Sequence record: PZ379549.1
Source of the DNA: a phage
DNA: 46,532 bases
Reading direction: 5' to 3' (one strand)
Of this stretch, positions 1 through 46,532 are shown piece after piece. Both the position numbers and the translations under genes were made by a program. Each line of letters begins with the position of its first letter. Position 1 is the stretch's first letter. Under the pieces are notes generated by a model. That model had not been told where the DNA came from. It saw only the letters and a list, made by a program, of their open reading frames with translations, and did not search any database.

Positions 1-8
1 GTTGCCAT
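1..8 (-). CDS. 5' end (start codon) of tape measure gene, if window ends are joined
   Basis: Minus-strand ATG at 8..6 preceded by GGAGGA (17..12); in frame with ORF open to nt 46532; in-frame stop upstream at 44..42. Confidence 0.5.
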
Positions 9-99
9 TTTTCCTCCACTAGTAGCTAATAGCACCAAAAGTCAAAAACAATAAATCTCAGTATGTATAATACATTAACACTTCGACTTTGGGGGTAAA

Positions 100-585
100 A
101 TGTTTAAATATTTGTTTGATTATGATGGAATGAAATTGATATGGAAAAACCCAACATCACCTAGATTCACAAAGGGCGACGTTGCGGGAACTAAGCATAA
201 GAGAGGATACATTCAAGTTTGCTTTAATAGGAAGCTATACCTTGCTCATAGGATAATATGGGAGATGCATCATGGCGAGATACCTGAAGGGATGCAGATT
301 GACCATGTAAATCAGGACAAATCAGATAACAGGATTTCAAACCTAAGGCTAGTCACGCAGCAGGAAAACAAAAAGAACAAACCAAAGCAAGTAAGAAACT
401 CTAGCGGAGTTAATGGTGTATCTTGGAATAAATCAAATGGAAAATGGCAGGTAAGGATAGGTGTAGATGGAAAAGATGTTCATCTTGGGTATTTTGATAA
501 CATTTCAGACGCTAAAAAAGCAAGATTCGATGCTGACTTTAGATTTAAATACCATGAAAATCACGGTAACAAAAAGCGCCAGTAG
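100..585 (+). CDS. HNH homing endonuclease with AP2-like DNA-binding domain (free-standing)
   Basis: 161-aa ORF; HNH-type block DHVNQDKSDNRISNLRLVTQQEN followed by AP2-like block GVSWNKSNGKWQVRIGVDGKDVHLGYF; antisense between tail chaperone and tape measure genes; paralog at 28631-29110. Confidence 0.7.
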   Translation: MFKYLFDYDGMKLIWKNPTSPRFTKGDVAGTKHKRGYIQVCFNRKLYLAHRIIWEMHHGEIPEGMQIDHVNQDKSDNRISNLRLVTQQENKKNKPKQVRNSSGVNGVSWNKSNGKWQVRIGVDGKDVHLGYFDNISDAKKARFDADFRFKYHENHGNKKRQ

Positions 586-599
586 GCGCTTTATTTTTT
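576..599 (+). terminator. rho-independent terminator after HNH gene
   Basis: GCGCC-agta-GGCGC stem-loop followed by TTTATTTTTT. Confidence 0.55.
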
Positions 600-713
600 A
601 TCTCTCATCATATCTAAGGGCTTTAGCTTCCAGCACCCTGATATCGTTAAGTACCATTTCGTCTATCATCTGACTTCGTAAACATCAAACAAGAAAATTC
701 AAGGCAGTTGTAA

Positions 714-1007
714 TCAAGACCTGTGGCGCCGCATGTACCAACCCTCCACTGAGTAGACATGGCGCAGTACAAATCCCAACTTTGCATCATATGCCTCATC
801 GAAGTATAACTCTTCAGGCTCCTCACCGTCATAGTCTGATCTTTTCATTCCAATCGCTTCGAGTTCAGCGTCAGTTGGTGGTGATTGGTACTGCAAAAAT
901 ACAGCGCGCCTTAAATTTTTACCCTTTGTCCCGCTAACGCCTTCATGTATGAATCCATTAATGACGGAACTGCGGCAGGGAAAAGGTTCGCGAACTCTTC
1001 TACGTTC
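714..1007 (-). CDS. -1 frame extension of tail assembly chaperone (gpT-like part of a G-T fusion)
   Basis: -1 frame open from 1007 to stop at 714, overlapping the 3' end of the chaperone ORF; acidic C-terminal segment; position between major tail protein and tape measure. Confidence 0.4.
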   Translation of the reverse strand, partial: ERRRVREPFPCRSSVINGFIHEGVSGTKGKNLRRAVFLQYQSPPTDAELEAIGMKRSDYDGEEPEELYFDEAYDAKLGFVLRHVYSVEGWYMRRHRS

Positions 1008-1264
1008 TCATCGTTAAATGGTTCTTCTAAATCCCAATCAGAGCAGATTTCGTTAATCAATTCTTTGGTGCTGAAGTTCTCACGGTTAAGAATCTCCTGC
1101 AACTCAGATGATTTCTTGTGCTTAACTGTTAGCACTACTTCTGCATCATCGCCATTAGCTAACTGGAACTTAACTGGAAGTTTAAAGTCAGGCAGCGCCT
1201 TAAGTGAAAGTTTAAATTTTGCCATCTCGTTATCTCCTTTGTTTGTGTTTGTTGATTGTAGCAT
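911..1264 (-). CDS. tail assembly chaperone (lambda gpG-like)
   Basis: 117-aa acidic ORF directly downstream of major tail protein and upstream of tape measure, with overlapping -1 frame ORF. Confidence 0.55.
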   Translation of the reverse strand: MLQSTNTNKGDNEMAKFKLSLKALPDFKLPVKFQLANGDDAEVVLTVKHKKSSELQEILNRENFSTKELINEICSDWDLEEPFNDENVEEFANLFPAAVPSLMDSYMKALAGQRVKI

Positions 1265-1272
1265 AAAGTGCT

Positions 1273-1300
1273 ATCAATAAAAAACCCTCCGAAGAGGGTT
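1273..1300 (-). terminator. rho-independent terminator after major tail protein gene
   Basis: Minus-strand RNA AACCCUC-UUCG-GAGGGUU followed by UUUUAUUGAU. Confidence 0.7.
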
Positions 1301-1304
1301 AATT

Positions 1305-1964
1305 TTATACCAGTTCAGAAGCTACAGAACTCAGCCTACCACGGATAGATACTGCGATGGATACCGTTTCGATTTCGTTGACACCAATGCTAGGGGTGTC
1401 GTTGAAAGCGATAGTGCCAGACTGAAGGCGCATCTCACTAGCGCGAGGTACGAACAGACGAATAGCAACAACAGTACCAGCTTCGTCATAGTTACGCAGA
1501 ATCGGATATACCGGGTTGGTGTATTCGTGCGCAAACGTGTAGGTGTTGGTTACCGCAGACTTATAAGTTGGAATCTGCTGCTCACGATCATCAGATAAAC
1601 ACTGGAAGTTAACGAACTGCTGTTCGCCGCCATCAGTGGATACGTCCTGAACACAAGGAACTTCAAACCAAGTAAGAATCTTAACAACTTCACCAGTTAA
1701 GCCAGCTGGGAACTTAGTGGTGTTGGAGGTATCAATACCTTCAACAGTTACGGTTGAACCAGATACCTCGGTAACGCGAACTTGCTTATCAGCCAGCAGG
1801 GTCGAAGCTGAGCTGGTAAATAGCAGGTAATCACCGCGTGCAATATCAGCAACGCTGGACAAAGTTAAAACAGGAGTAACAGCATTGGAAATTGCAGTTA
1901 CGTCGATAGCAGCTCCGCGAGAGCCTTCTACGAACACCTGGGTGCCGTTTGATAAGTGAGCCAT
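1305..1964 (-). CDS. major tail (tube) protein
   Basis: 219-aa ORF with AAGGA RBS; immediately upstream of G/GT chaperones and followed by strong terminator. Confidence 0.6.
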   Translation of the reverse strand: MAHLSNGTQVFVEGSRGAAIDVTAISNAVTPVLTLSSVADIARGDYLLFTSSASTLLADKQVRVTEVSGSTVTVEGIDTSNTTKFPAGLTGEVVKILTWFEVPCVQDVSTDGGEQQFVNFQCLSDDREQQIPTYKSAVTNTYTFAHEYTNPVYPILRNYDEAGTVVAIRLFVPRASEMRLQSGTIAFNDTPSIGVNEIETVSIAVSIRGRLSSVASELV

Positions 1965-1979
1965 GTATTTTTCCTTTTG

Positions 1980-2381
1980 TTAGTCTAGACGAACATAAAA
2001 ACGAACCGGGATAAACCACCCAGACTTGGATTTGATAACGGGGTTAACAACTCCAGACTCATAAATGGTCCCGCTGTCAAGCATTGTACCATCAACGATA
2101 GATTCTGCCAATTTATTAGCGATTTGTCTGGGCCTGTCAATTCCAGTACCAGGACTGAAGAATACTGAAATTTGAACCATGCCTACGTAGTATTTGCACT
2201 TCCTGCTTAATCCGTAGGTTACGGTGTCAACCTCTGTATAGTCGTACTTAAGCCAGATTGATCCATCGGCAGGAGGAGTAAACTTACAGTTCTCCCAAGC
2301 GACTGGATATCTGACCGGAAATTCATTTACCAACAAATCGTTGACGAATTTCCTTGCTGCTAATGATAATTCATATTGCAC
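1980..2381 (-). CDS. putative tail terminator / neck protein
   Basis: 133-aa ORF between neck block and major tail protein; function inferred from position only. Confidence 0.35.
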   Translation of the reverse strand: MQYELSLAARKFVNDLLVNEFPVRYPVAWENCKFTPPADGSIWLKYDYTEVDTVTYGLSRKCKYYVGMVQISVFFSPGTGIDRPRQIANKLAESIVDGTMLDSGTIYESGVVNPVIKSKSGWFIPVRFYVRLD

Positions 2382-3927
2382 GACGTAGCCTCCTCTACAG
2401 CTTCCTGGAAATACCTGCCCAACCTTGCTTGCACCACGCCAAGAACGCCAGCCGGAGCCTGATTCGAAGCCCCATACTCAAGGTCAGCAGGCGTAATCAA
2501 GCCTGTTAGTTATGTAGATAACACTTTGTCGCTGGTGAATTAGCCACAGCTCGAGCTTGCCTTGCCAGATACCTTTTTGTATGCTCCACCTGTTTTGATC
2601 GTAATCATTCAGAGACTGAGCTGAGCTGGGGAGTTCGCTGTAATCTGCCAGTTAGCCTTAAACCTACCAGTATCAACAGGCGATAAATCCACGATGGCGT
2701 TAGCAGCCTTAATTACCGTGTCGGCAGACAACAATATCAGAGAAGTTATCATCAGCTCTATCAATCCAATCAGCAATAGCTATTCGTCAAAGGTAGCCAA
2801 CACCACCAATATTTCTAGCCATAGGTAGCCACCCTCCTTAGAATTGGTCTGTAAGCCAACTACTAGTTCCTGTTGGTTTGACTGGCCTCGGGTCGACTAC
2901 AGTGTAAGTTTCATCTTCAACTATAATCCTGATAGCCCTGCAAGATTGCGGACTTCAGACAGTGAAAATTCCACGCTTGTCACCAAACTGGATATATTCG
3001 CCATCAATATCTCTGCGTTTTAATCTCCCTCACCAAGCCCCTTGATTGAAATGCAGTTGCCGCCAGCTACAGGAACCTCAACGCCGTCAACGATTTCGAC
3101 ACCATCCTTTACCAGTATTCATCTCGTGAATGTACCATCTGCCATCACTAAAGATAGTTGATGCCCGTGCGCATTAATTGATTCTACTTGGGAGTAATTC
3201 ATTGGCAACCGCACTCACCGCCAGCAGCGGACGTAATCAAGCCAAATCCGCCGCCTTTCTTGCGCAGGAGATTCCTAGTAAAGTGCGGCCCCACGGCGTA
3301 GCTGATCAATGATGACCTTGAGTTTGCGAGGTGGATATCATAAGCTGATAGAAAATTCACCGCTCAGCGGAGTAACTTGCCACCTTCTATGGCCATATAT
3401 CATCCAGCGACTTCATTCTCGCCCTTAAGCGCGCCATCAAGAAAGGCATCATGTGCAGATGTGTATAGTCCGACAGCGCTTTATAAGCATCATGCACCAA
3501 ACTTACTGGTCGCAGATGTATAGACTTAGCTAACTCAAGCCATACGTCCAGCGATTCGTCATCTGGAATATTCTTAAGAGCAGGAACCAGCGACTTGCAT
3601 AAAGGCTAATGCTTGTATCGTTCATAAAACCTCCATACAATAAACGGACGCCGAAGCGCCCTGTTTGGTTATTTGTACTCGTTGACCAGTCTCAGCCTCG
3701 GCAGATGGTTTTCGGTTCTTTGCGCTTATATTCTTGCTAACAACTTCTTGCGACGATTTGTTTGGTTGCCTTGGTGTCACCCTCAACCTGGTGAGTTGAC
3801 CCTCTGCGATTAAACGCTTGAGCCCAGTCGCAAATTACCTCAACCTCGAATGAGTGTCACCAGGCAAATATTTCTCACCTTTGTAAACGATAATCGTGCA
3901 CGCTCCAGTGTGTTCTAAACGAATCAT
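2382..3927 (-). pseudogene. frame-disrupted block of head-tail connector/neck genes (at least 4 genes)
   Basis: No ORF >=60 aa on either strand over about 1.5 kb; good RBS+ATG starts at 3927 (AAGGAG) and 3625 (GGAGG, ATGA overlap with upstream stop) each run into stops within 15-30 codons while adjacent frames continue protein-like sequence. Confidence 0.45.
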
Positions 3928-3993
3928 TTATTGCTCTCCTTTTATTAATTGATGGTTGATTATAACCCAACAAATCCATTTAGGTACAGACGT

Positions 3994-4016
3994 AAAAAAG
4001 CCCTCCATAAGAGGGC
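3994..4016 (-). terminator. rho-independent terminator after major capsid gene
   Basis: Minus-strand RNA GCCCUC-UUAUG-GAGGGC followed by UUUUUU. Confidence 0.65.
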
Positions 4017-4098
4017 GATTTATTACGCGAAGGTGATGCCTTTGATTACAGCCATACAGTCAGCGGGCGATAAACAATCAATCCCGTCGCTTTTGAGG

Positions 4099-4977
4099 TT
4101 ACCGGGTAGCGTGAAATGCAGGTCCTTCGGCTGAGCCAGGTAGCACGTTCGTCACTTCTGGAATCTCAATACTCAGGTTGAGCGGATCCTTTTCAAACGC
4201 CAGTGCAGCTTTGCCACCAGCACCGTCGTAGTTATCCAGGAATTGCAGATAACGCAGAGTGATGCCGGAGTTATTGGTTGCAAACAACTGCGCGTAGCTG
4301 ATAGAGGTGTTCGGCACCAGTTCTTGCATCAGGCGGCGAGCGGAAGCAGGCAGCAGGATATCAGTCGCGGTGTGAGCACCATTGGTAGCTGTTTCGATAG
4401 CATCGATAAGCGCTGTGATATCAGTCATAGCAGCAGCCGCGGAGTTCCACGTACCAGCAACAACCTGGTTAACGTTCGGACGCATTGAATACGCCAGGAA
4501 TGCCGTGCGGTGCAGAGCCAGACCATACCAGTTTATCGAGCAGGTTGTCATGCGCTTCAAAAGCCAATGCCTGTTTACGAGCTGACAGTGACTGACCAGT
4601 TGCTGCGCCAGCTTTGATTTCGTCGGTGGAAATCAGGAACGCGTTACCAAAACGGAAAACTTTGCCTTGCTTCTCGGTCATGAACGCATCAACCAGCGGC
4701 AAGGTCATCAGAGTAATCAGCGATAATCTGAGCAATTACCAACACCATCAAACTCTGGATATTCGAAATACTTCGCGTGAGCCAGGAATTTCATTAGTTA
4801 CCGGGAAGATATTAACAACTGAGTTTTCTGCGATATTCTTTTTCGTAAGCGCGATGTCAGAGCTAGCGGTCAAGCTGGCTTAACGGTCCAGATACCAGCA
4901 GCATCAGCTTTATCTACACCCATTTGCTCAAGGTGAGCGGTGATTTTTGCTTGTTCTGCATCAAATTTAATGGCCAT
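4099..4977 (-). pseudogene. major capsid protein gene, interrupted by at least 3 frame changes
   Basis: ATG at 4977 (MAIKFDAEQAKITAHLEQMGVDKADAAGIWTVKPA then stop); capsid-like segments continue in other frames (ORFs 4469-4735 and 4099-4560); position between decoration gene and neck block. Confidence 0.55.
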
Positions 4978-5085
4978 TCTTGTTTATTCCTTTTCAGTTA
5001 GGTATGTACGAGTCAATTATACACGACTTTGTGGTTGTTACAATAGCATCATACATGAGGCTTAAATCTGGATGGCAAAATACAC

Positions 5086-5108
5086 AAAAAAAAACCTCCC
5101 GAAGGAGG
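5086..5108 (-). terminator. rho-independent terminator after decoration gene
   Basis: Minus-strand RNA CCUCC-UUCG-GGAGG followed by UUUUUUUUU. Confidence 0.7.
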
Positions 5109-5129
5109 CTTGTTTAATTAATGATAATC

Positions 5130-5627
5130 TTACTTCTGCTTAACCTGAACTTCTACCAGAGGACCATCAACGCTATCACCTTGAGTTGGCATTGCGCCAT
5201 CTGCGGTTGCTGCGGGAATGAATCCGCCAGCGAATGTCCAGCCAGTTGCCACTCCGCCAGCTGCTGCGTCTGCAACAACTACGCCAGTTGAATCCACCAA
5301 AACGGCAATACCGAAGTTTGGCGCTACTGTAAGGTTAGTGCGCATCCAGATTCGGCCAGCGGTCATTACGTTAACAGCCTCTTTCACTTTAGCGGTGCCA
5401 CCTGGAGTCTCGTAGTGAGAACGAACAACTACGCCATAAGCCGCGTTTGCAGCAATACCAGTTGCAACAACGGATTTGTGACCATCAACTAACGGTTCTA
5501 GCGTAGATACTCTAACAGCTACACCAACCGGAATTGCATCGCTGCCGCCAACCACGCAAGCTCCGTCGATGTTATACAGAGAAGTATCAGCCACCATACC
5601 TGCCAGTGCTACAGAACGAATTGCCAT
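5130..5627 (-). CDS. putative head decoration / cement protein
   Basis: 165-aa Gly/Ala/Val-rich ORF between scaffold/protease and major capsid genes, flanked by terminator. Confidence 0.45.
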   Translation of the reverse strand: MAIRSVALAGMVADTSLYNIDGACVVGGSDAIPVGVAVRVSTLEPLVDGHKSVVATGIAANAAYGVVVRSHYETPGGTAKVKEAVNVMTAGRIWMRTNLTVAPNFGIAVLVDSTGVVVADAAAGGVATGWTFAGGFIPAATADGAMPTQGDSVDGPLVEVQVKQK

Positions 5628-5674
5628 GTATCTATCTCCTTACTTTTTAATTTTTGCTAAACGAGCGCGCGGGT

Positions 5675-6748
5675 CTAATTTCTTAGGCTGCGTCGGCAGC
5701 TATCAGATTTGTCGGAAGCTGCGGTTGCCTTGCGAACTTCAGCCATTTTATCAGAATCTTTGGCAATGTCGAACGCTGCATCGATGTATGCGTCGGACTT
5801 CTCGGAAACATCAAGGCCGGAAACTTCTTTAACGTATAATACCTTAATGCCTTTAGCATCCAGGCCATCAGTCTTAACACCAGCTTCAGTGGCTACAGTA
5901 ACCAGAGCGGCAAGTGCTTCAGCGTCAGCTTTGGCAGCTTTGACTGCTTTCTCGATTTCAGCGGGCATTGCGTCTACTTTGGCTTTCAGTGCGTCACGCT
6001 CAGCTTCGATGGAATCAACCTTAGCTTTCTGTGCTTCAACAGCGGAGTTAATTTTGGAGATGTGGTCTGCAACCTCTTTAGACACCTCAACTTCAACAGA
6101 GTCAATCTTAATCTTAACTGTCATTTTGTTTTCCTTAGTATTTAAATCAACGTTGTCAGTATACGGGTTTTCTTGCTGCCCGTCCATATTTAGCTTAGCA
6201 ATTCCAGCCCTACCCCTGAAGACCATAGCTAAATGGTTTACCTTAATGTCTCTCTGGATTGCGTCGAACTCTTGCCAGTCAGGGGGTATATCCAAACCCT
6301 GCGTGTTGTCAGTCCTAAGAATGTACTTACCAGTTGCCGGGTCGCCCCAACCTGGAGTTTCATCAAGAACTGCCGAGTAACCTACAGATAATTCCTTAGC
6401 GTTACCTGAGCGAGCCTCGTCAATAGCTTCTTGAGAGTATACGACAATTGGCGCAATTACCGTACTTCCTAGAGCCTCAGCTTTACCAGTTACCGAGCCG
6501 ACCACTACGTCTTTAGCGTTATCGGAGTTTACAAAGACGTGGTCAAGAGTCATTGGCTTACCCTGGTAACTGGCTAGCGACTCCTCTTTGAAGACTTCTT
6601 CTGCTGGCCTGAACTCTCGAACAGTCGAACCATCCTCTGTGAAATAAACCTGCACACCAACCCTTGCTACTACTGGCGTATCGACGAGAAAACCATTCTC
6701 GTCAATGGTGGCTTTGAATGTTGCTGTATCAAAGCGATTCTTATACAT
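5675..6748 (-). CDS. putative prohead protease / scaffold protein
   Basis: N-terminal globular part plus C-terminal coiled-coil (KAKVDSIEAERDALKAKVDAMPAEIEKAVKAAKADAEALAAL); ATG 6748 with GAGGAG RBS preferred over GTG 6763. Confidence 0.45.
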   Translation of the reverse strand: MYKNRFDTATFKATIDENGFLVDTPVVARVGVQVYFTEDGSTVREFRPAEEVFKEESLASYQGKPMTLDHVFVNSDNAKDVVVGSVTGKAEALGSTVIAPIVVYSQEAIDEARSGNAKELSVGYSAVLDETPGWGDPATGKYILRTDNTQGLDIPPDWQEFDAIQRDIKVNHLAMVFRGRAGIAKLNMDGQQENPYTDNVDLNTKENKMTVKIKIDSVEVEVSKEVADHISKINSAVEAQKAKVDSIEAERDALKAKVDAMPAEIEKAVKAAKADAEALAALVTVATEAGVKTDGLDAKGIKVLYVKEVSGLDVSEKSDAYIDAAFDIAKDSDKMAEVRKATAASDKSDSCRRSLRN

Positions 6749-6796
6749 CCCAATTCTCCTCACTAAAATCCATCGAATTCATCTTTCATCCTCATG

Positions 6797-9246: not shown

Positions 9247-10824
9247 GATGCCAGCGAGGCGCATCATCCTCGATTTAGGGTCTTCTGCAATGTTCAGTAC
9301 CAGGTTTACGGCCATTGTCAAACAGTCTATCTGGTCATCGTGAACATGTGAATCATCTGCCGTGAATGCCGCAATCTCCGTTAGCAAGCCATTAAGCCAA
9401 GTAGCAGACTCCGGAAGGATTACGTTACCAGCTTTAATCTGCGGCAATGCACTCATTACGCGAGTCAGCTTATCGTTATCCGGAACGTACGGCTCGATAG
9501 GCGTTCGCATAACCCTTCCGGCTGATTGAATCAGGCCAATACCAGAGGCTTTCTTCTCGATGATGATTTTACGAAGGATGCCATCTATCTGATTGGATGC
9601 CCTAGCCATCTTCTCGAAATCCAATAACTCAGCCTCGAGCTCAGGAGCTTCAAATTTACCGCGCCGCTGGTCAAGCAGATAAATCTTCCCATCCTTATAA
9701 CCCCATAGCTGCATGACGCTAAAGTCGCTGTAACTTTTGGTTGTCATCGCAGTATCAAGGACCATAAACCTGTAATCGTACTTAGCTGGCGGTCGCAGAG
9801 TGTCGCTAATGCGTTGAAGCCAGTCTACGTTAATCAGGTTGCCGCCAAGTGCTACTGGTTCTTGCTGATACTGGCTAAGGAATGTATAGCTATCAGAATC
9901 CCACATTGCAACTAGGTCGTGAACAGATTCCTTGCCAGGGAAATAGCTATAGTACCTAACACCATCACGCTCAATATATTCGCTTGATAGAACGTCATCA
10001 ATGAATTGCCGCTTAATCCAGTCAGGAAGCGTGTCGACGTAATCCTCAGTTACGAGCGCCGGTATCTTAATCAAGTCGAAGCTAATACCCATACCGCCAT
10101 TCATCATGAACCACGTACTATCATTCACATGAAGGCGCTGTTGGATAGAGATAATCGGCGTCGCCTTTCCTTTTACGGAGCTCGCCCTACGAGAGCGTAT
10201 TGTATTCTTTAGCATCACGTGATTGTTAGCGCGAAAAACAGCAGAAAGCATGTCGGCTGGTTTGTCAAAATCATCTAACAGAACCGCTCCGCTATATGAA
10301 TCCGTTATATATCCACCCCTTGCGCCGGTTATTTGGCCTCCAGCAGCCTTAGATATTGACTCAAACCGAACCTTACCAGACTCATCCAGAACTTGAAGCT
10401 CATCATCCTTGCACGTACCGAACTTGCATGGGAATAACTCCTGGAACTCAACAGACTTAATCAGGTCCCGAACTCGCTTGGAGTTACGCTTAACAAGTGA
10501 GTCGGCAAACGAGATGTTCAGGTTCCTGACCTTCTTTAGCTTAACCATCGAGTAGGCCGGGAAGTGAATTGAAGCTATCTCTGTTTTTCCACTTCCTGGA
10601 GCGATGTTAATGATTGTGTCCTTGCGCTCACCAGCGATAATCTCGTCAATGATTCGACACAGGTATTTGTGATGCCAGTTAGGGATGTATCGCTCGCCCT
10701 GGGTAAGTTGGAACCACACCCGCAAGAATCCCTCGAAACTATGAGTGGATATAGCCTTAACTGCCATCTTTTCTGCTGGCGTCATTTCTTCCCATACTAA
10801 TGTTTCACTCATCCTACTCTCCAA
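9241..10824 (-). CDS. terminase large subunit
   Basis: 527-aa ORF with ATPase and nuclease-like halves; immediately upstream of portal module. Confidence 0.85.
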   Translation of the reverse strand: MESRMSETLVWEEMTPAEKMAVKAISTHSFEGFLRVWFQLTQGERYIPNWHHKYLCRIIDEIIAGERKDTIINIAPGSGKTEIASIHFPAYSMVKLKKVRNLNISFADSLVKRNSKRVRDLIKSVEFQELFPCKFGTCKDDELQVLDESGKVRFESISKAAGGQITGARGGYITDSYSGAVLLDDFDKPADMLSAVFRANNHVMLKNTIRSRRASSVKGKATPIISIQQRLHVNDSTWFMMNGGMGISFDLIKIPALVTEDYVDTLPDWIKRQFIDDVLSSEYIERDGVRYYSYFPGKESVHDLVAMWDSDSYTFLSQYQQEPVALGGNLINVDWLQRISDTLRPPAKYDYRFMVLDTAMTTKSYSDFSVMQLWGYKDGKIYLLDQRRGKFEAPELEAELLDFEKMARASNQIDGILRKIIIEKKASGIGLIQSAGRVMRTPIEPYVPDNDKLTRVMSALPQIKAGNVILPESATWLNGLLTEIAAFTADDSHVHDDQIDCLTMAVNLVLNIAEDPKSRMMRLAGIK

Positions 10825-10828
10825 ACTA

Positions 10829-11353
10829 TTACAGCTTACTAATCACAGACTCCAGCGCTTCCTTCATCGTATCGACGTCGTTAGCTGAAGAGTTGTTGCT
10901 GATGGTAATCTCCTGCGGCTTGTCGATTCCAAGCTCTTTGGAAATCATGCCAGGGTTAATGATGCCAGATGCTGCAAGCTGGTATTTCTGCTCGCGAATC
11001 ACGGAATCAATGAACGCAATCACCTCATCATAACCAGCCGACTTCCTCCATTTCTCGATGGCGCTATGGGTGACACCGCAGTAAAGGCAGAATCCGGTTA
11101 GCGTGAAGACTCGTGGTTTGTGCACCAGGCTCTCTTTTACCACACCCTGGAAGCTGGCTGTCTCGATTGCCTTGATTGCCTGGTTCTCAGCCCATGAGAA
11201 GTATTTCACGGCGAATTCAAATAGCTGTTCGGGTGTCATGCTTCGGTTTTTGGCTAGCGTTGTAATGTCTGAGTACTTTTTATTGTACATGGCTTTAAAG
11301 TTGCCAGAGCGGACCTTTTCTTGCGCCTGACTGGTGAAGTTTTCGTCTTTCAT
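10829..11353 (-). CDS. putative terminase small subunit
   Basis: 174-aa ORF immediately upstream of TerL, AAGGAGG RBS; assignment by position. Confidence 0.5.
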   Translation of the reverse strand: MKDENFTSQAQEKVRSGNFKAMYNKKYSDITTLAKNRSMTPEQLFEFAVKYFSWAENQAIKAIETASFQGVVKESLVHKPRVFTLTGFCLYCGVTHSAIEKWRKSAGYDEVIAFIDSVIREQKYQLAASGIINPGMISKELGIDKPQEITISNNSSANDVDTMKEALESVISKL

Positions 11354-12543: not shown

Positions 12544-12775
12544 AAAGGCTATTCCCATTCTGATCATGGCCCACGCGCCCTCGTCGATAGCCCGCTATCC
12601 ACACAAACTTGTCTCGTGCGATTAGTCGTCGAATACCGGCCCCCACATCTTGAGTGATCAGCGCCGCCACTACCTTATCATCTTTCTTCTTTGCGCCAAG
12701 TTTGCCGTACTCTTCATTCAGCTTATCAGCCTGGCGCTTGACTGCGTTAAAGTATGCGTCGTTTAATCCGAACAT
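12536..12775 (-). CDS. hypothetical protein
   Basis: 79-aa ORF, start ATG overlaps upstream stop (TAATG). Confidence 0.35.
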   Translation of the reverse strand: MFGLNDAYFNAVKRQADKLNEEYGKLGAKKKDDKVVAALITQDVGAGIRRLIARDKFVWIAGYRRGRVGHDQNGNSLYE

Positions 12776-13436: not shown

Positions 13437-13859
13437 TCAGATTTTGTTAATTTGCTCAAACTTCTCAAACCAGAAAACAACTGGATCCTCAACTATGGAG
13501 ATGAGGCCGAACCGCTCTGCCGTGCGAAAATTCATGCTGCTCTTACGCCCGCGAGCGACTTGAAGAGACACCTGTTCCCTGAACATTTCAAGGGAATAGC
13601 AAGTTTTCATGAGGTTGCATGGAGCACATGCAGGGTAAAGGTTTTCCATTCGATCAGCTTGTGGTCGATTAAACTCACCTGTCGCCTTCAGCTTGAAAGT
13701 TCCTTTCTCCGCTGACTTCATGCATACCTCAGATTTACGTAGCACCGGTTCAACATGGTCAGCATGCCAGCCTTTCTCAGGTAGTTCACACCCACAATAA
13801 GCGCAGCGACCACCGAACTTGCCCTTCAACTCTTCCCTTTGAGATTTGCTTAATTTCAT
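13437..13859 (-). CDS. HNH endonuclease (classic CxxC...HxxH...N...CxxC type)
   Basis: CAYCGCEL...HADHVEP...NLYPACAPCN motifs. Confidence 0.7.
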   Translation of the reverse strand: MKLSKSQREELKGKFGGRCAYCGCELPEKGWHADHVEPVLRKSEVCMKSAEKGTFKLKATGEFNRPQADRMENLYPACAPCNLMKTCYSLEMFREQVSLQVARGRKSSMNFRTAERFGLISIVEDPVVFWFEKFEQINKI

Positions 13860-17005: not shown

Positions 17006-17176
17006 ATGACAGTGATGACAGAAAAAACAGTTGGTTACAGTTACAGTAATGGTCATTGGGTTGTTGAGTTAAAAGGGTTTCACAAGTACCCAAAATTAAG
17101 TTTCTTCATGACAGAAGATGATGCAAAGTCTTGGGTTCAGGTTCTTAAAGAAAGGTGGTTTAAAAATGAAACTTAA
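17006..17176 (+). CDS. hypothetical protein
   Basis: ORF 16877-17176 trimmed to internal ATG. Confidence 0.3.
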   Translation: MTVMTEKTVGYSYSNGHWVVELKGFHKYPKLSFFMTEDDAKSWVQVLKERWFKNET

Positions 17177-24957: not shown

Positions 24958-25083
24958 AAGCCGTATGCCAATTTCAGGTATTCACGCGCACACATCCAAT
25001 GACTCATTCTGATTGAAACTCAACTGCATCAACTCAGTATAAATGTTGGGCAATCCTAAACATCTCCTTATCTACGATTTTCA

Positions 25084-25590: not shown

Positions 25591-26007
25591 CTTATCATCT
25601 CTGCGAATGCCGCAAGAAAACCCTCTCTTCCATAAGCCACCGCTGCGAAACCGCCTGATTCCCTTACGCTTTTTAGGAATGACTTTTGCTCATTGCTAAC
25701 TGGGCTTGCTTGCGTTTTACCAGCCCTCTTTAACTCTATGGCGCCAAATGGATAACCGCCACGCAATGACTCAGGTATCAGAAATAAGCAGTCTGACACA
25801 CCTTTGAGAAGCCCCTTGGCTTGGTCTTTTCTTGCTTGACCAATGCTCTTTTTATTGATTCGTTAACTCGTGTGCCAGTAAACAATCTGCGGATAGTTGA
25901 TATTTCACCCAATCAGAGCAGAAGATTTGTTCATCGTCTTCCTTTGGGCATGACTTCACCGGTCCGCCATAGAACTCGAGGTAATCACCTTTGTCTGTGA
26001 TTTTCAT
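25584..26007 (-). pseudogene. VRR-NUC-type nuclease gene with about 3 frame changes
   Basis: ATG 26007 with GGAGG RBS gives EDDEQIFCSDWVKYQ; continuation YPQIVYWHT, NESIKRALVKQEKTKPRGFSK and GVSDCLFLIPESLRGGYPFGAIELKRAG...NEQKSFL lie in three other frames within about 150 nt. Confidence 0.45.
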
Positions 26008-26008
26008 A

Positions 26009-26263
26009 TCAATCCTCCATCGTAAATGATTTGTTGGCGATAATATCTTGCGACTTCTGATTCTTGCGGTGCGTAATCCTTAGCGGCGCACGGAAAAGAT
26101 GTGCATTTGTCATAATCATTTTAGCATTACGCAATCTGCCAATCCTAAAAGCCTCAGTCCTGTTCTCGATGTGAGTTGAGCAAAACGCCTTCCATTTGAC
26201 AGAACAAACACGATGGTCTGACTCCGGGAAGAATGTTTCATAAGCTCGGAATCTTGTCACCAC
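26009..26263 (-). CDS. hypothetical ORF (possible frame-shifted helicase tail or separate small gene)
   Basis: 84-aa ORF overlapping helicase 3' end. Confidence 0.25.
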   Translation of the reverse strand: MVTRFRAYETFFPESDHRVCSVKWKAFCSTHIENRTEAFRIGRLRNAKMIMTNAHLFRAPLRITHRKNQKSQDIIANKSFTMED

Positions 26264-28006
26264 TGTGAGCCATTACCTCATATGAAGCAACGATCCCTGA
26301 CTGGTTCTTTGTTAACCCAATCTTGAAGTCATAAACTCGCAACCAGTCCCCCTTACGATACATTTTTCCTGATAACTTAGCATTCGGGTCTATGAGCATC
26401 TCACCACAGCATCTGCAATTCTTAGCTGCAATATCATTCTTCTCACCGCATCCTTTCTTAATGATAGCTTTGGTCTGTGGGTCCGCTATATCTTCACACA
26501 GTCTAAACTGAAAGAAGTGCTCACAGCGCTTCCAGTCAATTACGTTATTGCAGCGCCTGGCTAATTGAGAGTTCACATAAGAGCATGCCGGACAGATTCT
26601 TGGCTTATCACCACGCTTTCTTGCTGACCTAAATTTCTGGTCTTGTACCTCTTCTATAATTGGGTCGAAGTAAAGTTCAGCCATATCATCAAGCGTTCCA
26701 GCAAAATCAAGAACAACATGGTCATCTTTTACCATTCCAGCTTCTTTGTGCTTCTTCTTAAGGATACGCATACCACGACCAAGCAACTGAATGAGTAGAG
26801 TAATGCTACCAACCTTCCTCAGGATAATGCTTGTATCCCACGGGGGGCAGTTTACGCCAGTTGTGAGGCAACCAATCTGAAATATGAACTTATATTCTCC
26901 GTTGGCTGCCTTCTCAAGTATCTCTCTACGCTTCTTCTCACCAGTGGAGTTGGTAACTATCGCCCAAGTAACACCTTCTAGGAAGTGCGGCTGCCGCCTC
27001 CATCGCAATGCTGTTTGCCAGCGCAAGTTACCAATGCAGCATTCCTTGTTTCCATAAACTTAGCAGCAAATCCCATTATCTTTTGTGTCATCGTTTGGTT
27101 TTCGTGAATCTTTGCAGCCATCGCATCCATTTCTTTCTTGCTGAAGTCCTTAACCCCATCACTTCCATCAGGAGTGAACTCACTAAGGTCGTAGCCCAAA
27201 TCACCAACTTCACCGTAGACAGTAGGAACAACGAACCCCAAGTCAACAAGGTAGCTGGTTGGCACTTGCATTACAGTTTTGCGCCAGAATCCACGGACAT
27301 TTGGGTTACTAACTACAATGTGGTCGTTGTTACGGTACGGGCTGCCAGTCAAACCGAAGATGCGTAGTTCGCGACCATACTTCTCTTTGCAGCGTCTCTT
27401 CATCTCAGTAATGATTAGCGTGTACTGCGCACGACCAGTTCCGAGCAATCCGGTATTCACTCCATCCTTGAAAACCATCTCACCCTTCTTCGTGCTCATC
27501 TGCTCGAATGTTTCCTCGTTCTCTTCAGCTTCTACGATATCCATATGGTCAACCATATGACATTCATCTATCGCAATAACGGCAGGAACATAGTCACCAA
27601 GGCCCTTAAACAAGCCGTTAGCAGCCGTGCCCTCACTAGCCACTATGGTTGGGTAGTAAACTGATTTAACGTTAAGGCCAGCGCAATAGACGCTATTACG
27701 GATGCCGAAGTTACGAAGCTCTTCAGCGTTCTGGCTGATAATTTCTGACTGGCGAGAAAGCACCATGTAAGGAAGCCCAAGCTGTTCCATGCGCTTTCCA
27801 ATCATGGCAAGAATAATTGTCTTACCAGCAGATACAGACAGGTCTGCGATGAATGGGGCCTCGTACTTTCCAATAGCCTTCCCAATTGCATCAAATGTCA
27901 CACACTGGAATGGGTAAGGAGTGATTTCTCCAAACTGGTAATCTCTCTGAATCTGCTTAATCTTCTCTTGATCGAAGTTGGCTACTAAGCGCTCTACTGG
28001 AAGCAT
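26238..28006 (-). CDS. SF2 DEAH-box helicase with C-terminal Cys-rich region, one frame change near 26978-27026
   Basis: N-part ORF 26978-28006 has Walker A SAGKT and DECH; C-part ORF 26238-27026 has motif VI QLLGRGMR; the two overlap in different frames. Confidence 0.65.
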
Positions 28007-28102: not shown

Positions 28103-28492
28103 ATGTGTGAAATTGACAAGCGAACTATCAACGGCAATAACGGAACCATCCGCACGCAAGACAAGAAACAGCGCAAACGACCGTCAGGCTACTACGTATT
28201 GAAAGATGAAGTAAAGGCTGGGCTAAGAGCTCGTCTGGAGATGGTTCTTGACTTCTACGGCACGAAGGCCAATATCGCCAAGCAGTTAAATGTATCTCAC
28301 CAGACTGTAGAACAATGGTTTGATCGCGGTATGATTTCGGCTCGAGGCGCCCAGCGAGCACATAATGCGTACAAGAGAAATAAGGGAGGGTTCCGAGCTA
28401 CTTTCTGCCGACCAGACCTGCAATTTGACGGTAACGGTAAGCCTCTGACGCTTACGATGCAAGAAGCGCCACATGCTACGCGTGGTTACTGA
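28103..28492 (+). CDS. HTH DNA-binding protein (candidate regulator)
   Basis: HTH-like GTKANIAKQLNVSHQTVEQWF; first gene of rightward unit; a +1 frame continues 36 codons past the stop. Confidence 0.45.
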   Translation: MCEIDKRTINGNNGTIRTQDKKQRKRPSGYYVLKDEVKAGLRARLEMVLDFYGTKANIAKQLNVSHQTVEQWFDRGMISARGAQRAHNAYKRNKGGFRATFCRPDLQFDGNGKPLTLTMQEAPHATRGY

Positions 28493-28585
28493 GGCTGAAC
28501 TAGCAACTAAAGCCACCTTGTCGACTCGTGGCGCAAGAATAAGATTGCCAACGAAGCCGCACGAAAAGCTAAAGAGTAAATAATT

Positions 28586-28618
28586 GGATGTGCCATAATC
28601 GGTACATCCTTTTTTATT
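28586..28618 (+). terminator. putative terminator before HNH-AP2 gene
   Basis: GGATGT...ACATCC stem with 12-nt loop followed by TTTTTTATT. Confidence 0.4.
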
Positions 28619-28630
28619 GGAGAGAAGAAA

Positions 28631-29110
28631 ATGAACTGGCATGATTATTTTTACTATGTAGATGGCAAATTGCATTGGAAGATTAGCACTGCAAGACGTG
28701 TTAAGGTTGGCGATGAGTGCAACTCACTATCTACATCTGGCTATTACAAAGTGTCTGTTAATGGCTTTAGGACTTATGTACATAGAGTTGTGTGGGAGAT
28801 GTTTAATGGAGAACTTCAAAATGGCGACTACATTGATCATATAAACCATAACAAATTAGATAACAGAATAGAAAACCTAAGAGTAACAACAAATCAAGGT
28901 AACTCAAGAAATTGCAAGCTTAGCGTTTTATCAACAACTGGTTATTGTGGAGTGGCAAAGCTAAATCACGGAAAATTTAAGGCTCACATCAAGGTTGACG
29001 GCAAGCAGCTACACCTTGGGAACTTCGATACTCCAGAGCGGGCGTATAAAGTAAGAATTGAAGCAGAGGGAAAATACAACTTTCACGAAAATCACGGGTT
29101 AAGCAAATGA
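28631..29110 (+). CDS. HNH homing endonuclease with AP2-like domain (paralog of 100-585)
   Basis: Same architecture: DHINHNKLDNRIENLRVTTNQGN then GVAKLNHGKFKAHIKVDGKQLHLGNF. Confidence 0.7.
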   Translation: MNWHDYFYYVDGKLHWKISTARRVKVGDECNSLSTSGYYKVSVNGFRTYVHRVVWEMFNGELQNGDYIDHINHNKLDNRIENLRVTTNQGNSRNCKLSVLSTTGYCGVAKLNHGKFKAHIKVDGKQLHLGNFDTPERAYKVRIEAEGKYNFHENHGLSK

Positions 29111-30030
29111 ATTACGATAAGAATGAAGTTATACCTAAGATGGCCGGATTGTGGAAATCATTTTATGCAAAGGAACTTGGTTGGAATGATAGACACCTAA
29201 GTAAGAAGCACGGACCATGCCCATACTGCTTTGGCACTGACAGATTCAGATTTACCGACGAAATAGGCAGTGAAAAAGGAAATGGCGCGGCAGTTTGTTC
29301 GAAATGCGGAAGTGACTCCGGTATAGGATGGGTCATGAAGTGCACTGGATTGTCCTTCGCTGATTCAGTAAATTTGCTTGGTGACTGGCTGAACTTAATA
29401 CCAATTGAGGTTATAGTTAAAGCAAACAAGCAAGCATCAAGAACGCAGCGTTATAAAATTTGCGCTCAAGTAGACCACAAGAAAGTTCTTGAGGTCATGG
29501 AGAGGACTCAGCGAGTTGAATCTAGTCCACTCACGACATACGAGGGTATTTATGACGAGTTTGGTTTTGATGTTGGTATAGCTAAAAATTGTTCAATGAT
29601 TCACGCAATCCCTTGTTCGATGGTTTATGAAGATGGGCTTAGTGATGAGTTCTGTAACGTAATGTTTATTGATGAGGATTCAAATGTTAAGTTCCTTGCT
29701 GGTGATTACACTCGTGATTCTGTTTCCGTTATTGGTTCTAAGCTGGATGATAGTTATACTTATGTTGTTGACAATTATATTGATGGCATACGTGTTCACC
29801 TTGCTACTGGTGGGCGCGAAGTGTTTGTTGCTTTCTCCTGTTACAATATGGAGATGGTTATCCACCGCGACAAGTCAAGGAAGTTCAGAATTGCTTGCCG
29901 TGATTCTGATAGCGATATACTCGCTGTTGCTGACGATAGGGGTGTTGATGTTGTAGTTCCTAATGACGGTGAGTCATTTAAAACAGGCATACGAAAGAAA
30001 GTGTACAAAGCAAACGACTTGCTAAACTAA
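29107..30030 (+). CDS. DNA primase (zinc-finger plus TOPRIM-like)
   Basis: CPYCFG...CSKCGSDSG zinc-binding motif, acidic TOPRIM-like C-terminal half. Confidence 0.65.
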   Translation: MNYDKNEVIPKMAGLWKSFYAKELGWNDRHLSKKHGPCPYCFGTDRFRFTDEIGSEKGNGAAVCSKCGSDSGIGWVMKCTGLSFADSVNLLGDWLNLIPIEVIVKANKQASRTQRYKICAQVDHKKVLEVMERTQRVESSPLTTYEGIYDEFGFDVGIAKNCSMIHAIPCSMVYEDGLSDEFCNVMFIDEDSNVKFLAGDYTRDSVSVIGSKLDDSYTYVVDNYIDGIRVHLATGGREVFVAFSCYNMEMVIHRDKSRKFRIACRDSDSDILAVADDRGVDVVVPNDGESFKTGIRKKVYKANDLLN

Positions 30031-35591: not shown

Positions 35592-36282
35592 ATGGTTATC
35601 TGGTCTTTATTTGATGGTTCTGGTCTGGCGGTAAAGGATTGGGCTGAAGCTGGCCACACTTGCTACTGTTTCAACTTTGATGAGTCTGACCACGGCAGCT
35701 ACAGTGACTTAAATGCAAAGGTTGAGCATGAGAACATCACATACGTTAACGCATGGATAGATGCTGACTTCGATTTTGATGTGAAACCTGATTTTATAAT
35801 GGCGTTCCCTCCATGCACTGACTTAGCCGTGAGCGGATCAAGACACTTTGAACGCAAGTGTACTAGCTAACCCTAACTTCCAAATTGAAGCTGCGGAGAC
35901 GTGCAAGATTGCTTTTAATCTTGCTGAAAAATACGGAGTACCATACATGATCGAGAACCCAATCAGCGTACTGTCATCACTTTGGCGAAAACCTGATAAC
36001 ACCTTCCACCCATATGAATACGGAGGCTATTTGCCGGAAGATGATTTACACCCGTTTTTTAGCGACCTAATAAAGCCAAAAGACGCATATCCCAAGAAGA
36101 CATGCATTTGGTATGGCAATGGGTTTAAATGGCCAGAGGCAATTCCAGTGGACGTTAACGGTGGATTCTCTGACCAATACAAGAAGCTAGGCGGGAAGAG
36201 CAATAAGACAAAGGTAATTCGCAGCCTAACTCCTCGCGGTTTTGCAAAAGCCGTCTTCATTGCAAATAGCACCAATTGCTAA
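35592..36282 (+). CDS. C5-cytosine DNA methyltransferase-like, one frame change near 35848-35870
   Basis: Motif I LFDGSGLA, PC motif FPPCTDLAVSG, ENV-like MIENP; two overlapping ORFs in different frames. Confidence 0.5.
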
Positions 36283-36350
36283 AGACAAATCTCAAGGATG
36301 AGATATCATTACTCCATTGAAACGAAACACACCTTCTAAGGAATACGAAA
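36264..36350 (+). promoter_or_regulatory. box-hairpin-(-10)-leader unit upstream of cor-like gene
   Basis: Box 36264-36284 encoding MTase C-terminus NSTNC and stop, hairpin ATCTCAaggaTGAGAT, TATCAT, ACTCCATTGAAACGAAACACACC. Confidence 0.4.
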
Positions 36351-37558: not shown

Positions 37559-37565
37559 AAGAAAA

Positions 37566-37581: not shown

Positions 37582-37588
37582 TAATCAT

Positions 37589-41014: not shown

Positions 41015-41023
41015 TCTACACTA

Positions 41024-43558: not shown

Positions 43559-46532
43559 TTAGTTGTAACCCCTCAGATAAGCAAAGGCTCTTCCGCCCTG
43601 CTGGAATGACTTGCTGATTTCCTCAGCAACGATAACCTTGACTCCAGATTCTATCGCCTTAGCATCATTTCCGCCACCAATTCCAGAGTTTACGTTAACC
43701 GTCACGCCGCCAACACTGACATTCGTGCCACCAACAACTCCACCATTAGCATAGCCAGAGGGCCCACCAACAGCGCCGCCATTTGCATAACCTCGCATTA
43801 GCTTGTACAGGTTCTTAACGCCAATCCTGCTTGTAGCTTCTTTTGTGAATACAAACTCACCGCGGTGCACAGTTCCAGCAGGTTGATACTTCCCGCCGTC
43901 TCCAGTGTAGCCGCCACCAGCAAAGCCAATTGCTGACTTTATTGACTCAAAGGCACTACCTGCTCCAGTGTCACCACCAAAGCTCTTAATTGTAGATTCA
44001 ATAGCCTTTACCAAAAGTAGCTGAGTTGCAATTTTCGCAATCATTTTCAGTATGTTTGCCGTGAACTCCCTGAAATTAGTCTCTCCAGTGGTTACAAGGT
44101 TTGTAATCTGGTCGGTAATTCCATCAAAAGCTGCGACAGTCAAATCCTTAGCAATTTGGTTGAAGTCAGTGTACTTCTCAGTTAAGTCAGCAAGCGTTGA
44201 AGTTACACCAGCTTGCCAGTCTGACCTTAGGTTATCTTCCTGCCTGTAGTATTCTTTTCTTGCTTCCAGCAGATTTTGGAAATCAACATCATTTACAGAG
44301 CCACCCTTGTTTACCTGATTGGACTCTAGCGCCTGAAGTTCTCCTGCCCTTTGCCGCTCCCTTTCGGATAGACCCGCAGCAAGTGAAACATTCTTCGCCT
44401 CATTGGTAATCTGTATTGTCTTCTTAAGGTTGTCATCAAGTAACTTGTTTGACCTCTCCTGAAGCACAATCTGGTCACCAAGTTCAGCCTTCTGTTTAGC
44501 CTGTTCAAGAATGATATTCTTCTGCGCAAGTAGCTTAGCCTGTGATTTTGTAAGCGTACCATCCGCTTGTCTTTGTTCAAGTATTGCAAACTTCGCTTCT
44601 TCCTGGAATAACTGCTTTCTTTCATTGCTTATTACATCATTTATCGTTCTGTGCTCTTGTAAGACCTTTAACTGAGCCTGAAGTGCAAGAACGCCAGATT
44701 CATAAGATAAAGTTAAATCACTTTCTTCTTTTACAGCCTTTTTCCTCTCACTCCTTGCTTTCTTTATCGCATCATACTCATCGGCAAGAGCCTTCTTCCT
44801 TGCTGCAAACTCCTTATCGGTTGATGCATTATTGCCGCTAAGGTTGGTGTTATTGTTGTTCTCGACATAACCAAGCTCACCCTTCCTGATTCTCGCATCT
44901 CGCTCAGCTATGCTTTTTGCTAACTCCTCATTTTGCTTCTTAGCTGCATCAACAATCTTTTGCTGCTCAGCGATTGCTTCATTGCCTAAATCGCCAAGTC
45001 CAGGTATTGACTGAAGTGTCTTGGTTGCTGCTATTGCAAACTCGCCCAATAGGATATCACCGGAGTTTATTAACGACCTTATCTGCTCAATAGTCCCAGC
45101 AACAACGTCAGTTATTAAGTTAAGCGCCCCAAGCGTCCTTTTGCTTATATCATCCCAAATCTCACTTACAAACTTCCTGAAGCTATTCCATGCGCTCTCA
45201 AGAGGGTTAAGGCTTAGTGCTACGTCTGCTAGCCTGTTTTCCATAACGTTAGCGAATAGCTCAGTAGCTGCGGTTACAGCCTCTGTTTCTCCAGCCGTCT
45301 TCCTGATATTCTCAATGTATTTCAATTGCCCAGACTGAAGGAAGTTGAACTGCTTATCGAGTGCAATCAGACCTTGAATTGGGTCCTTTGTAATCTGATC
45401 AAAGTATCCAAGAATAGTTTTCGAGTCTGTTGATGTTACAGTTGCCCATTGTGCTGTCGCCTTGGTTATCTTATCTATCTGCGTAAGAGTCAGATTACCG
45501 TTTGCTACCAGGCTGTTAGCTATCTCCTGGATAAGTCCGCGCGTGGCTAGTGTTGAACTCTCAATTCCATCAACAACCTGATTTATCTGCGCTGTCGACG
45601 TGATAGTTGAGTTGCCAACCAATGTTATCGTTGATGCTAGTCCGCGAGTGTTCTTGTCAGCCTGATAAGCAGCAACACCAAGAGCGCCGAGGGCCAAGCC
45701 CAAAGTCCCAACAACTGCCGTTAATGGGTTAATGGCTGCCAGTGCGAACCTTGCGGTGTTAGCAATACCACCAAAGCTATCCTTAATCTGCCCACCCTGC
45801 TGAATTGCAATTAGCCAGATTGGGATACCACCAGCTAGAGAGGTTCCGATATCTGTAATCTGCGCTGGAAGCTGTCGAATTGCTTGCTTGTATTGACCGG
45901 CACTAAGCCCAGACTTAACAAAAGCGGAGCTTTGCTTCTGCAATTGTACCGCAGATGCCTCGGCAGCCTTTCCAATCCTGTCGATAATCGGTGCAGCCTG
46001 GTCACCAACTCCTAGCTGAGCAGCCTTAAGCTGAAGAAGTTCAGTCCTTGTCAGGCTTGCTGCATTCGCCTCGTTCTCAAGAGATTGAATGAACTTTTGC
46101 GCTGCTGTTGTTGCTTTCTCTTTATCTATTGATGCCTGTAGTGCAGCCCTGCCTTCTTCGCTAAGAGCGGCTTTAGACCTGTTTAGCTTATTGATTTGAG
46201 TTTCAATAACAGAGCCAAGCCTGAAGAATTCATCATCAGGAACTATCCCGGATTCAAATGCTTTGTCCAAATCTGTTGCTGCTTTCTGCAACTTCAGGAA
46301 TTTAGCAGCGGTTGGGTCTATGGCTTGCTGAAGTGATGCGAAAGATTTGCGCTGCTCCTCAAGCTGCCTTGCAGTGTCCCTTGCTTGAGTCTTGGCTACA
46401 AGTTCGGCGTTGACGAAGCTATTAATGCCTGTTGCAGCTTGCTCGTTTGCTTGCCTGAATTTCTGTAAGGATTGCGTACCCTTATCGACCTGAGCTACGT
46501 CGACGGCTAGCGTGATACCAGCAATTTCGTTA
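43559..46532 (-). CDS. tail tape measure protein, 5' end runs off window
   Basis: Long alpha-helical Ala/Gln/Lys-rich ORF; track start 46291 is TTG; hand translation shows frame open from 46291 to 46532. Confidence 0.8.
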   Translation of the reverse strand, partial: NEIAGITLAVDVAQVDKGTQSLQKFRQANEQAATGINSFVNAELVAKTQARDTARQLEEQRKSFASLQQAIDPTAAKFLKLQKAATDLDKAFESGIVPDDEFFRLGSVIETQINKLNRSKAALSEEGRAALQASIDKEKATTAAQKFIQSLENEANAASLTRTELLQLKAAQLGVGDQAAPIIDRIGKAAEASAVQLQKQSSAFVKSGLSAGQYKQAIRQLPAQITDIGTSLAGGIPIWLIAIQQGGQIKDSFGGIANTARFALAAINPLTAVVGTLGLALGALGVAAYQADKNTRGLASTITLVGNSTITSTAQINQVVDGIESSTLATRGLIQEIANSLVANGNLTLTQIDKITKATAQWATVTSTDSKTILGYFDQITKDPIQGLIALDKQFNFLQSGQLKYIENIRKTAGETEAVTAATELFANVMENRLADVALSLNPLESAWNSFRKFVSEIWDDISKRTLGALNLITDVVAGTIEQIRSLINSGDILLGEFAIAATKTLQSIPGLGDLGNEAIAEQQKIVDAAKKQNEELAKSIAERDARIRKGELGYVENNNNTNLSGNNASTDKEFAARKKALADEYDAIKKARSERKKAVKEESDLTLSYESGVLALQAQLKVLQEHRTINDVISNERKQLFQEEAKFAILEQRQADGTLTKSQAKLLAQKNIILEQAKQKAELGDQIVLQERSNKLLDDNLKKTIQITNEAKNVSLAAGLSERERQRAGELQALESNQVNKGGSVNDVDFQNLLEARKEYYRQEDNLRSDWQAGVTSTLADLTEKYTDFNQIAKDLTVAAFDGITDQITNLVTTGETNFREFTANILKMIAKIATQLLLVKAIESTIKSFGGDTGAGSAFESIKSAIGFAGGGYTGDGGKYQPAGTVHRGEFVFTKEATSRIGVKNLYKLMRGYANGGAVGGPSGYANGGVVGGTNVSVGGVTVNVNSGIGGGNDAKAIESGVKVIVAEEISKSFQQGGRAFAYLRGYN

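Follow-up and report, generated by a model that had tools for sequence, protein, structure and literature searches.

Two probable HNH-AP2 homing endonuclease genes at separate loci in the genome of a T1-like coliphage

The genome of the T1-like coliphage deposited as PZ379549.1 contains two genes, here termed gene 1 and gene 2, that probably are homing endonuclease genes (HEGs) of a large phage HNH_3-AP2 family and entered this genome separately by recombination during co-infection. The homing reading is strong for gene 2, which is located directly upstream of the DNA primase gene, and circumstantial but consistent for gene 1, which resides between the genes for the T chaperone and the tape-measure protein. 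The window, i.e. the whole stretch of DNA analyzed here, comprises all 46,532 bp of the record and represents a complete, circularly permuted genome from the Braunvirinae (Drexlerviridae). Escherichia phages ES and AN_ECEAS are its closest relatives in the databases, with 91-96% identity across much of the genome, followed by TR2, TR3, Rao1, CY1 and IMM-001 with ~85% identity. Coordinates of the features treated below are collected in Table 1.

Table 1. Features of PZ379549.1 at and around the two HNH_3-AP2 genes
Feature	Position	Strand	Description and basis
Tape-measure start	1..18	-	ATG at 8..6, continues from 46532 downward; RBS CCTCC at 13-17 on the + strand
Gene 1 cassette	19..591	+	573 bp, 36.8% GC; blastn and boundary inspection against TR2 and ES
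TATAAT hexamer, possible -10	66..71	+	Perfect; 28 nt upstream of gene 1 ATG; no acceptable -35
Gene 1 RBS	91..95	+	GGGGG; sequence
Gene 1	100..585	+	161 aa, ATG to TAG; HNH_3 at aa 47-91, AP2-like at aa about 103-148; antisense to tail operon
Hairpin AAAGCGCC-AGTA-GGCGCTTT	573..592	both	G+C-rich, T-runs on both strands; terminator scan
T / TfmS chaperone frame (DUF1799)	592..950	-	Pfam; tblastn in three frames; homologue of the relatives' intact 83-aa TfmS
Chaperone G (Phage_TAC_4)	911..1264	-	Intact; Pfam; 96% aa identical to TR2
Third HNH protein	13437..13859	-	140 aa, zinc type CxxC...HxxH...N...CxxC; Pfam HNH 21.3 bits
~99% identity tract vs DTL and EC3a	28550..29444	+	Gene 2 plus 335 nt of primase 5' sequence; identity profile, mismatch list
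Terminator hairpin of upstream regulator	28586..28615	+	Also in the HEG-less ES allele; gene 2 inserted just downstream
Gene 2	28631..29110	+	159-aa HNH_3-AP2 endonuclease; TGA stop overlaps primase ATG (ATGA)
DNA primase, chimeric	29107..30030	+	First third (~335 nt) ~99% DTL/EC3a-like; rest 63-70% identical to every relative compared
Tape-measure body (TMP_2 and Tape_meas_lam_C)	43559..46532	-	Pfam; joined to 8..1 by circular permutation

Domain architecture of the two proteins

Both proteins match the Pfam profile HNH_3 (PF13392) well above its gathering cut-off of 24.8 bits, gene 1 with 84 bits and gene 2 with 65.3 bits, and the gene 1 product falls into phrog_99 with an E-value of 1e-67. 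For the AP2 domain (PF00847), gene 1 yields a Pfam match of 20.8 bits, under the gathering cut-off of 33.3, and no match was returned for gene 2 at E<=0.01 in a single-sequence Pfam search; PF00847 is present in the precomputed annotations of some family members. In a profile of 40 family sequences, the N-terminal 98 positions match I-HmuI (1U3E, E 2.9e-8), and positions 100-150 match the AP2 domains of WRI1 (7WQ5, E 1.1e-5) and TEM1 (E 4.5e-3). The AlphaFold (AF2) model, with a pLDDT of 89, features strands at residues 107-110, 115-122 and 125-132 and a helix at residues 135-148, making up a three-stranded sheet plus helix. Its top match in the PDB is again 1u3e, with a Foldseek probability of 1.00, though with an E-value of only 7e-3, while the AP2 matches to TEM1, WRI1 and AtERF1 have the same probability and rmsd values of 1.3-2.1 A, though E-values of 0.014-0.09. 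The HNH plus AP2 architecture that the initial annotation had assigned to both genes is thus borne out by the HNH_3 Pfam matches, the family-profile AP2 match and the AlphaFold model, the latter two carrying the AP2 part.

D68, H69, N81, N90 and N93 as well as every other invariant column of the 40-sequence alignment are retained in both proteins, and either predicted nuclease would be expected to nick or cleave DNA in a metal-dependent manner. In their N-terminal 100 residues, the two proteins share the beta-beta-alpha-metal core and the DH...N...N motif with the HNH_3 enzyme I-HmuI from the SPO1 phage of Bacillus. I-HmuI nicks one strand and by analogy a nicking mechanism is plausible for the proteins encoded by genes 1 and 2. 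I-HmuI is intron-encoded and uses C-terminal helical and HTH modules for binding DNA, whereas genes 1 and 2 are intergenic and encode AP2 domains instead.

The GC content of both genes (37-38%) is below that of the genome (44%). No further HNH_3 copies besides genes 1 and 2 were detected when the whole 46,532 bp were searched by tblastn. A weak AP2-like match at 17030-17128 lacks PHROG support and was treated as a chance hit.

Gene 2 at the primase locus

Orthologues of gene 2 with 97-98% amino acid identity are found directly upstream of the primase gene in ten records from several genera, some of these records being RefSeq duplicates; the carriers include DTL, EC3a, IME542, TR1, RobRod40, AugustePiccard and phiA2-1. 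ORF 60 of DTL, Ec3a_47 of vB_EcoS_CEB_EC3a and the other orthologues occupy the same site and show the same overlap with the primase gene, and there is no material difference between the DTL/EC3a-type genes and gene 2, which is another copy. Compared with these primase-adjacent orthologues, gene 1 reaches an identity of only about 42-48%. Phage ES provides the empty allele of the primase site, in which the RBS and ATG of primase come immediately after the terminator hairpin that also precedes gene 2. ES primase is 59% identical to the primase encoded here over its whole amino acid sequence.

The most informative feature of this locus is the stretch 28550-29444. Its 895 nt show 6-7 differences from DTL, and identity to DTL/EC3a drops to 65-90% in the flanks. 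Judging from this identity profile, the stretch is a co-conversion tract, the classic signature of homing, and shows a recent transfer of gene 2. The tract extends asymmetrically into the primase gene, which suggests that the cleavage site of the gene 2 enzyme lies in the 5' region of that gene. The proposal that the two genes are selfish homing endonucleases is therefore supported, for gene 2 by this tract of ~99% identity within flanks of 65-90% and for both genes by the existence of empty alleles.

The earlier statement that both genes adjoin essential genes agrees with the coordinates, gene 1 being a neighbor of the tape-measure gene and gene 2 being linked to primase by the overlap of stop and start codons. 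Owing to this overlap, gene 2 lacks a separate terminator and is not autonomous; it is probably co-translated with primase. Its description as a free-standing gene with its own signals consequently does not apply, and for gene 1 the same description holds for the terminator, its promoter being putative (see below). Co-translation with primase would also be in line with a different view, according to which both proteins are not mobile at all and act as phage transcription regulators or as general nucleases of the core genome, and AP2 domains do serve as transcription factors in plants and apicomplexans, as illustrated by the PDB matches. We give this view hardly any credence, as close relatives lacking them grow normally, both proteins retain the complete HNH catalytic motif and gene 2 lies in a tract of lateral transfer.

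The third HNH nuclease that had been noted in the genome as unrelated to the other two indeed belongs to another subfamily and is encoded on the minus strand. The protein falls into phrog_2118 (E 7e-55), with weaker matches to endonuclease VII families, and is 99% identical at the amino acid level to a protein encoded at the same locus in ES; the GC content of its gene (46.8%) is in line with that of the genome. It is a conserved core gene and not a mobile element or HEG, and may encode a junction-resolving or packaging-related nuclease rather than a restriction-like enzyme. An assignment as a terminase-associated HNH protein resembling HK97 gp74 finds no support, as the gene is located about 2 kb from terS (10829-11353) with ORFs in between.

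Genes of the HNH_3 family are also present at other sites in the relatives. ES contains one in the spacer between terS and terL (L004:875-1351), a site that is empty in the genome studied here (10824-10829), and TR2 and IMM-001 each contain one downstream of the capsid gene (L001:7752-8348; L003:12508-12981), where the site is likewise empty here, so that the clade shows additional presence/absence polymorphism. Further homologues reside between terL and portal, portal and protease, exo and recombinase, and tail J and exo genes in IMG/VR contigs, again at sites unoccupied in the present genome. Families of HEGs typically display such a scattered distribution over many sites.

Gene 1 at the junction of T and the tape-measure gene

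The minus strand encodes, in this order, the major tail protein (1305-1964), chaperone G, the T frame and the tape-measure protein. The tape-measure ORF is uninterrupted across the record ends when translated on the minus strand from position 8 and specifies a protein of 990 residues. The alignment to ES and TR2 is unbroken over the record ends up to position 18, and positions 1 to 18 constitute the last left-hand stretch common with HEG-less relatives. The continuity of this ORF confirms the proposed antisense placement of gene 1, with the T chaperone gene on one side and the tape-measure start on the other. The record ends at 1 and 46532 probably are an arbitrary cut of a circular assembly; the cut falls within the tape-measure ORF, 8 nt from its beginning, and a mere 18 nt separate it from the left edge of the gene 1 cassette.

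Two further observations concern the neighborhood of chaperone G. In TR2, ES and IMM-001, chaperone G and the major tail gene are separated by an extra ORF for 82 amino acids, the N-terminus of which is hydrophobic (L001:4651-4899, L002:4651-4899), in place of which only a two-way terminator (1283-1300) is found at 1264-1305 in our genome. Inspection by eye of the overlap of G and T (911-950) revealed no convincing canonical -1 slippery heptamer, and in the relatives T (TfmS) is annotated as an ORF in its own right. A G-T frameshift in this genome is to be regarded as putative.

The junction of T and tape measure is contiguous in TR2, ES and IMM-001, and the claim that gene 1 interrupts a normally contiguous arrangement is correct. 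In these three phages, 37 nt separate the stop codon of T (TfmS) from the tape-measure ATG, and the cassette at 19-591 stands in place of 28 nt of this spacer. The tape-measure RBS and start are preserved on one side of the cassette and the stop codon of T on the other. The native spacer of the relatives consists of a UUCG-tetraloop hairpin (DNA sequence GCCACCCCGAAGGATGGC), followed by a U-run and then the RBS. In TR2 and ES (L001:3950-3990 / L002:3945-4000) it has the appearance of a strong intrinsic terminator with the T stop codon within the stem and the tape-measure RBS ~10 nt downstream, and a terminator is annotated at the matching position of this spacer in some GenBank records. Possibly, the native hairpin is an attenuator setting the ratio of chaperone to tape-measure protein.

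The hairpin at 573-592, with folding z-scores of -5.1 on the + strand and -4.4 on the - strand, is the predicted terminator of gene 1 and is sited where the native post-T hairpin was. A consensus scan of the + strand upstream of gene 1 detected no sigma-70-like promoter. On the minus strand, a sigma-70-like match (TTTCCA-17-CATAAT, 147..119) is situated inside the gene 1 ORF and faces the tape-measure start; in the scan it scores at chance level.

The comparison with related phages that had been suggested as a check finds empty sites for both genes, contrary to the outcome named as refuting, namely the same genes at the same loci in all relatives. For gene 1, a query representing the empty allele matches 445 phage records, with a query coverage of 80% or more in 85 of them, and in the 60 best rows as well as in a 60-row spread of the 445 records all junction-spanning alignments are single pieces of equal span. 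The T/tape-measure site is empty in every relative seen, including the carriers of gene 2. Homologues of gene 1 are themselves abundant, as about 4000 of 50,697 phage records searched by tblastn contain them, often several per genome, with a best identity of 57%; among 5.8 billion proteins, the closest relative is 59% identical. Neither IMG/VR, searched with exact DNA patterns for the junction and the interior of gene 1, nor the JGI metagenomes returned a match, and no homologue of gene 1 was found at a T/tape-measure junction among the contexts of the closest homologues and the 80 best IMG/VR loci. Gene 1 is thus a divergent insertion in the T/tape-measure spacer of which no second example has come to light so far.

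These relationships also bear on the origin of the pair. The proteins encoded by genes 1 and 2 are 42% identical from end to end (E 8e-39) and belong to the same family, and to this extent their description as paralogs is justified. They are not in-genome duplicates, as closer relatives of each exist elsewhere. A duplication within the genome was rejected because gene 2 has orthologues of 97-98% identity in other phages while the pair share only 42%. Relatives of up to 59% identity for gene 1 and the much closer orthologues of gene 2 are indicative of separate acquisitions.

A sharp mosaic break coincides with gene 1. On the tape-measure side, nucleotide identity to ES is 100% from 60 to about 650 nt off the insertion, and on the T side it is ~80%. 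What meets at the break are extensive regions of distinct ancestry, 592-6763 on one side and 36265-46532 on the other, and not the edges of a short conversion tract; ordinary recombination could be its source. As no close copy of gene 1 is present anywhere we searched, its recent mobility is putative, and the gene could be an old, stranded insertion. It is thus conceivable that gene 1 is a stranded or domesticated relic, which arrived as an HEG or by illegitimate recombination, no longer homes and is either neutral cargo or kept for a benefit such as the cutting of co-infecting competitors or the supply of a terminator between the chaperone and tape-measure genes. Its singleton status, 59% being the highest identity to any relative and the site not being seen occupied a second time, and the position of its hairpin exactly at that of the native terminator would fit. 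On the other hand, neither the ORF nor any invariant catalytic residue is damaged even though an error-rich stretch lies beside them, the GC content is still foreign (37% versus 44%), and a beneficial gene should appear in relatives. On balance, we regard a relic as unlikely and prefer to see gene 1 as an HEG in its own right.

The quality of the record deserves consideration in this context. In 592-5100, about 77 additions of one or two bases set the record apart from ES and IMM-001 alike, most densely at 2480-5000, and smaller clusters of insertions are found at 12627-12653, 25004-25047, 25857-25900, 26252-27002 and 28454-28525. Almost all events are insertions, their base composition is even and 20 of the 77 equal a neighboring base compared with an expected 44%, so they are not linked to homopolymers. 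The T frame (592..950) is broken three times, five insertions of +1 or +2 spreading it over three frames, and the genes for T/TfmS, the capsid protein, neighboring head-tail proteins, a helicase and the regulator upstream of gene 2 are all split across frames. Since a viable phage cannot bear such lesions, we read the insertions as errors of the record, and a sequence-quality artefact looks like the economical explanation for them. A broken T frame as a biological result of the insertion of gene 1 was rejected, as the same random insertions riddle the capsid gene and neighboring essential genes. Both HEG ORFs are intact despite the patchy errors right beside them; as these errors adjoin both genes, inferences at the nucleotide level on the flanks are weakened.

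Dense random insertions of 1-2 nt in several stretches of the record may raise the suspicion that gene 1 itself stems from a chimeric assembly, that is from a join to DNA of another phage in the sample, the more so as no more than 18 nt lie between the end of the record and the left edge of the cassette and no independent copy of the gene 1 junction was found. We consider this very improbable. Both junctions fall exactly on functional boundaries, namely the RBS and start of the tape-measure gene and the stop codon of T, the insert is a complete gene with RBS and terminator, the circular closure aligns seamlessly with ES, and gene 2 constitutes an analogous, independently confirmed HEG in the same genome.

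Proposed mechanism and relation to known systems

For both genes, homing would start when the AP2 domain binds its specific DNA sequence, located in or close to the empty allele of a related phage that infects the same cell. The bound DNA would then be nicked or cut by the I-HmuI-like HNH domain, and repair templated by the HEG-carrying genome would copy in the HEG together with some flanking sequence. Gene 2 would be expressed in line with primase. The nuclease activity and target sites of both enzymes as well as the present-day mobility and timing of expression of gene 1 are matters that we infer. The gene 1 cassette took out the native terminator hairpin, maybe part of the target site, which would render the carrier immune, and provides a two-way hairpin in its place. 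Transcription of the tail operon consequently has to cross ~570 nt of antisense HEG sequence in order to reach the tape-measure gene. One may go further and imagine the gene 1 cassette as more than cargo, with an AP2 domain that recognizes the G+C-rich DNA of the terminator hairpin and with the cassette's own hairpin and antisense transcription resetting the chaperone-to-tape-measure ratio; this extension is speculative and we deem it quite improbable. If the AP2 domain of gene 1 did recognize the native hairpin, intergenic terminators would represent a class of homing site.

Free-standing HEGs of phages T4 and T5 (seg, mob, F-Tfl) are intergenic beside conserved genes, display presence/absence polymorphism and cause co-conversion of flanking markers. 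They possess other modules (GIY-YIG, or HNH without AP2) and have been characterized experimentally, whereas genes 1 and 2 are known from sequence. The 'IPA-HNH' HEGs of vibriophage ICP1 (gp59, gp115/116 and gp209; PMC10448857) combine an N-terminal HNH with a C-terminal AP2 domain just as genes 1 and 2 do, a likeness of architecture; the ICP1 proteins escape the HNH_3 Pfam profile, while genes 1 and 2 match it strongly. HNH-AP2 HEGs have been reported to cluster beside essential phage genes, tape-measure and chaperone genes among them, and to sit where regions of genetic exchange begin and end (PMC10448857). The combination of an N-terminal HNH and a C-terminal AP2 domain is also that of the homing endonucleases from phages, cyanobacteria and protists treated by Magnani et al. 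(2004, cited in PMC10448857).

Taken together, genes 1 and 2 are genuine yet unexceptional representatives of a very widespread kind of phage parasite gene, and nothing about them challenges current understanding. Local identity at the primase locus, and putatively also at that of gene 1, is driven by HEG-associated gene conversion, and both loci should be left out of phylogenies. Gene 2 is a clean natural example, as the comparison of alleles with and without the HEG confines the probable cleavage region to the first ~335 nt of the primase gene. The T/tape-measure spacer adds one more insertion site to the many used by this HEG family in T1-like phages. Should the gene 1 enzyme prove active, mapping its target within a short conserved intergenic hairpin would be easy and might yield a useful new specificity.
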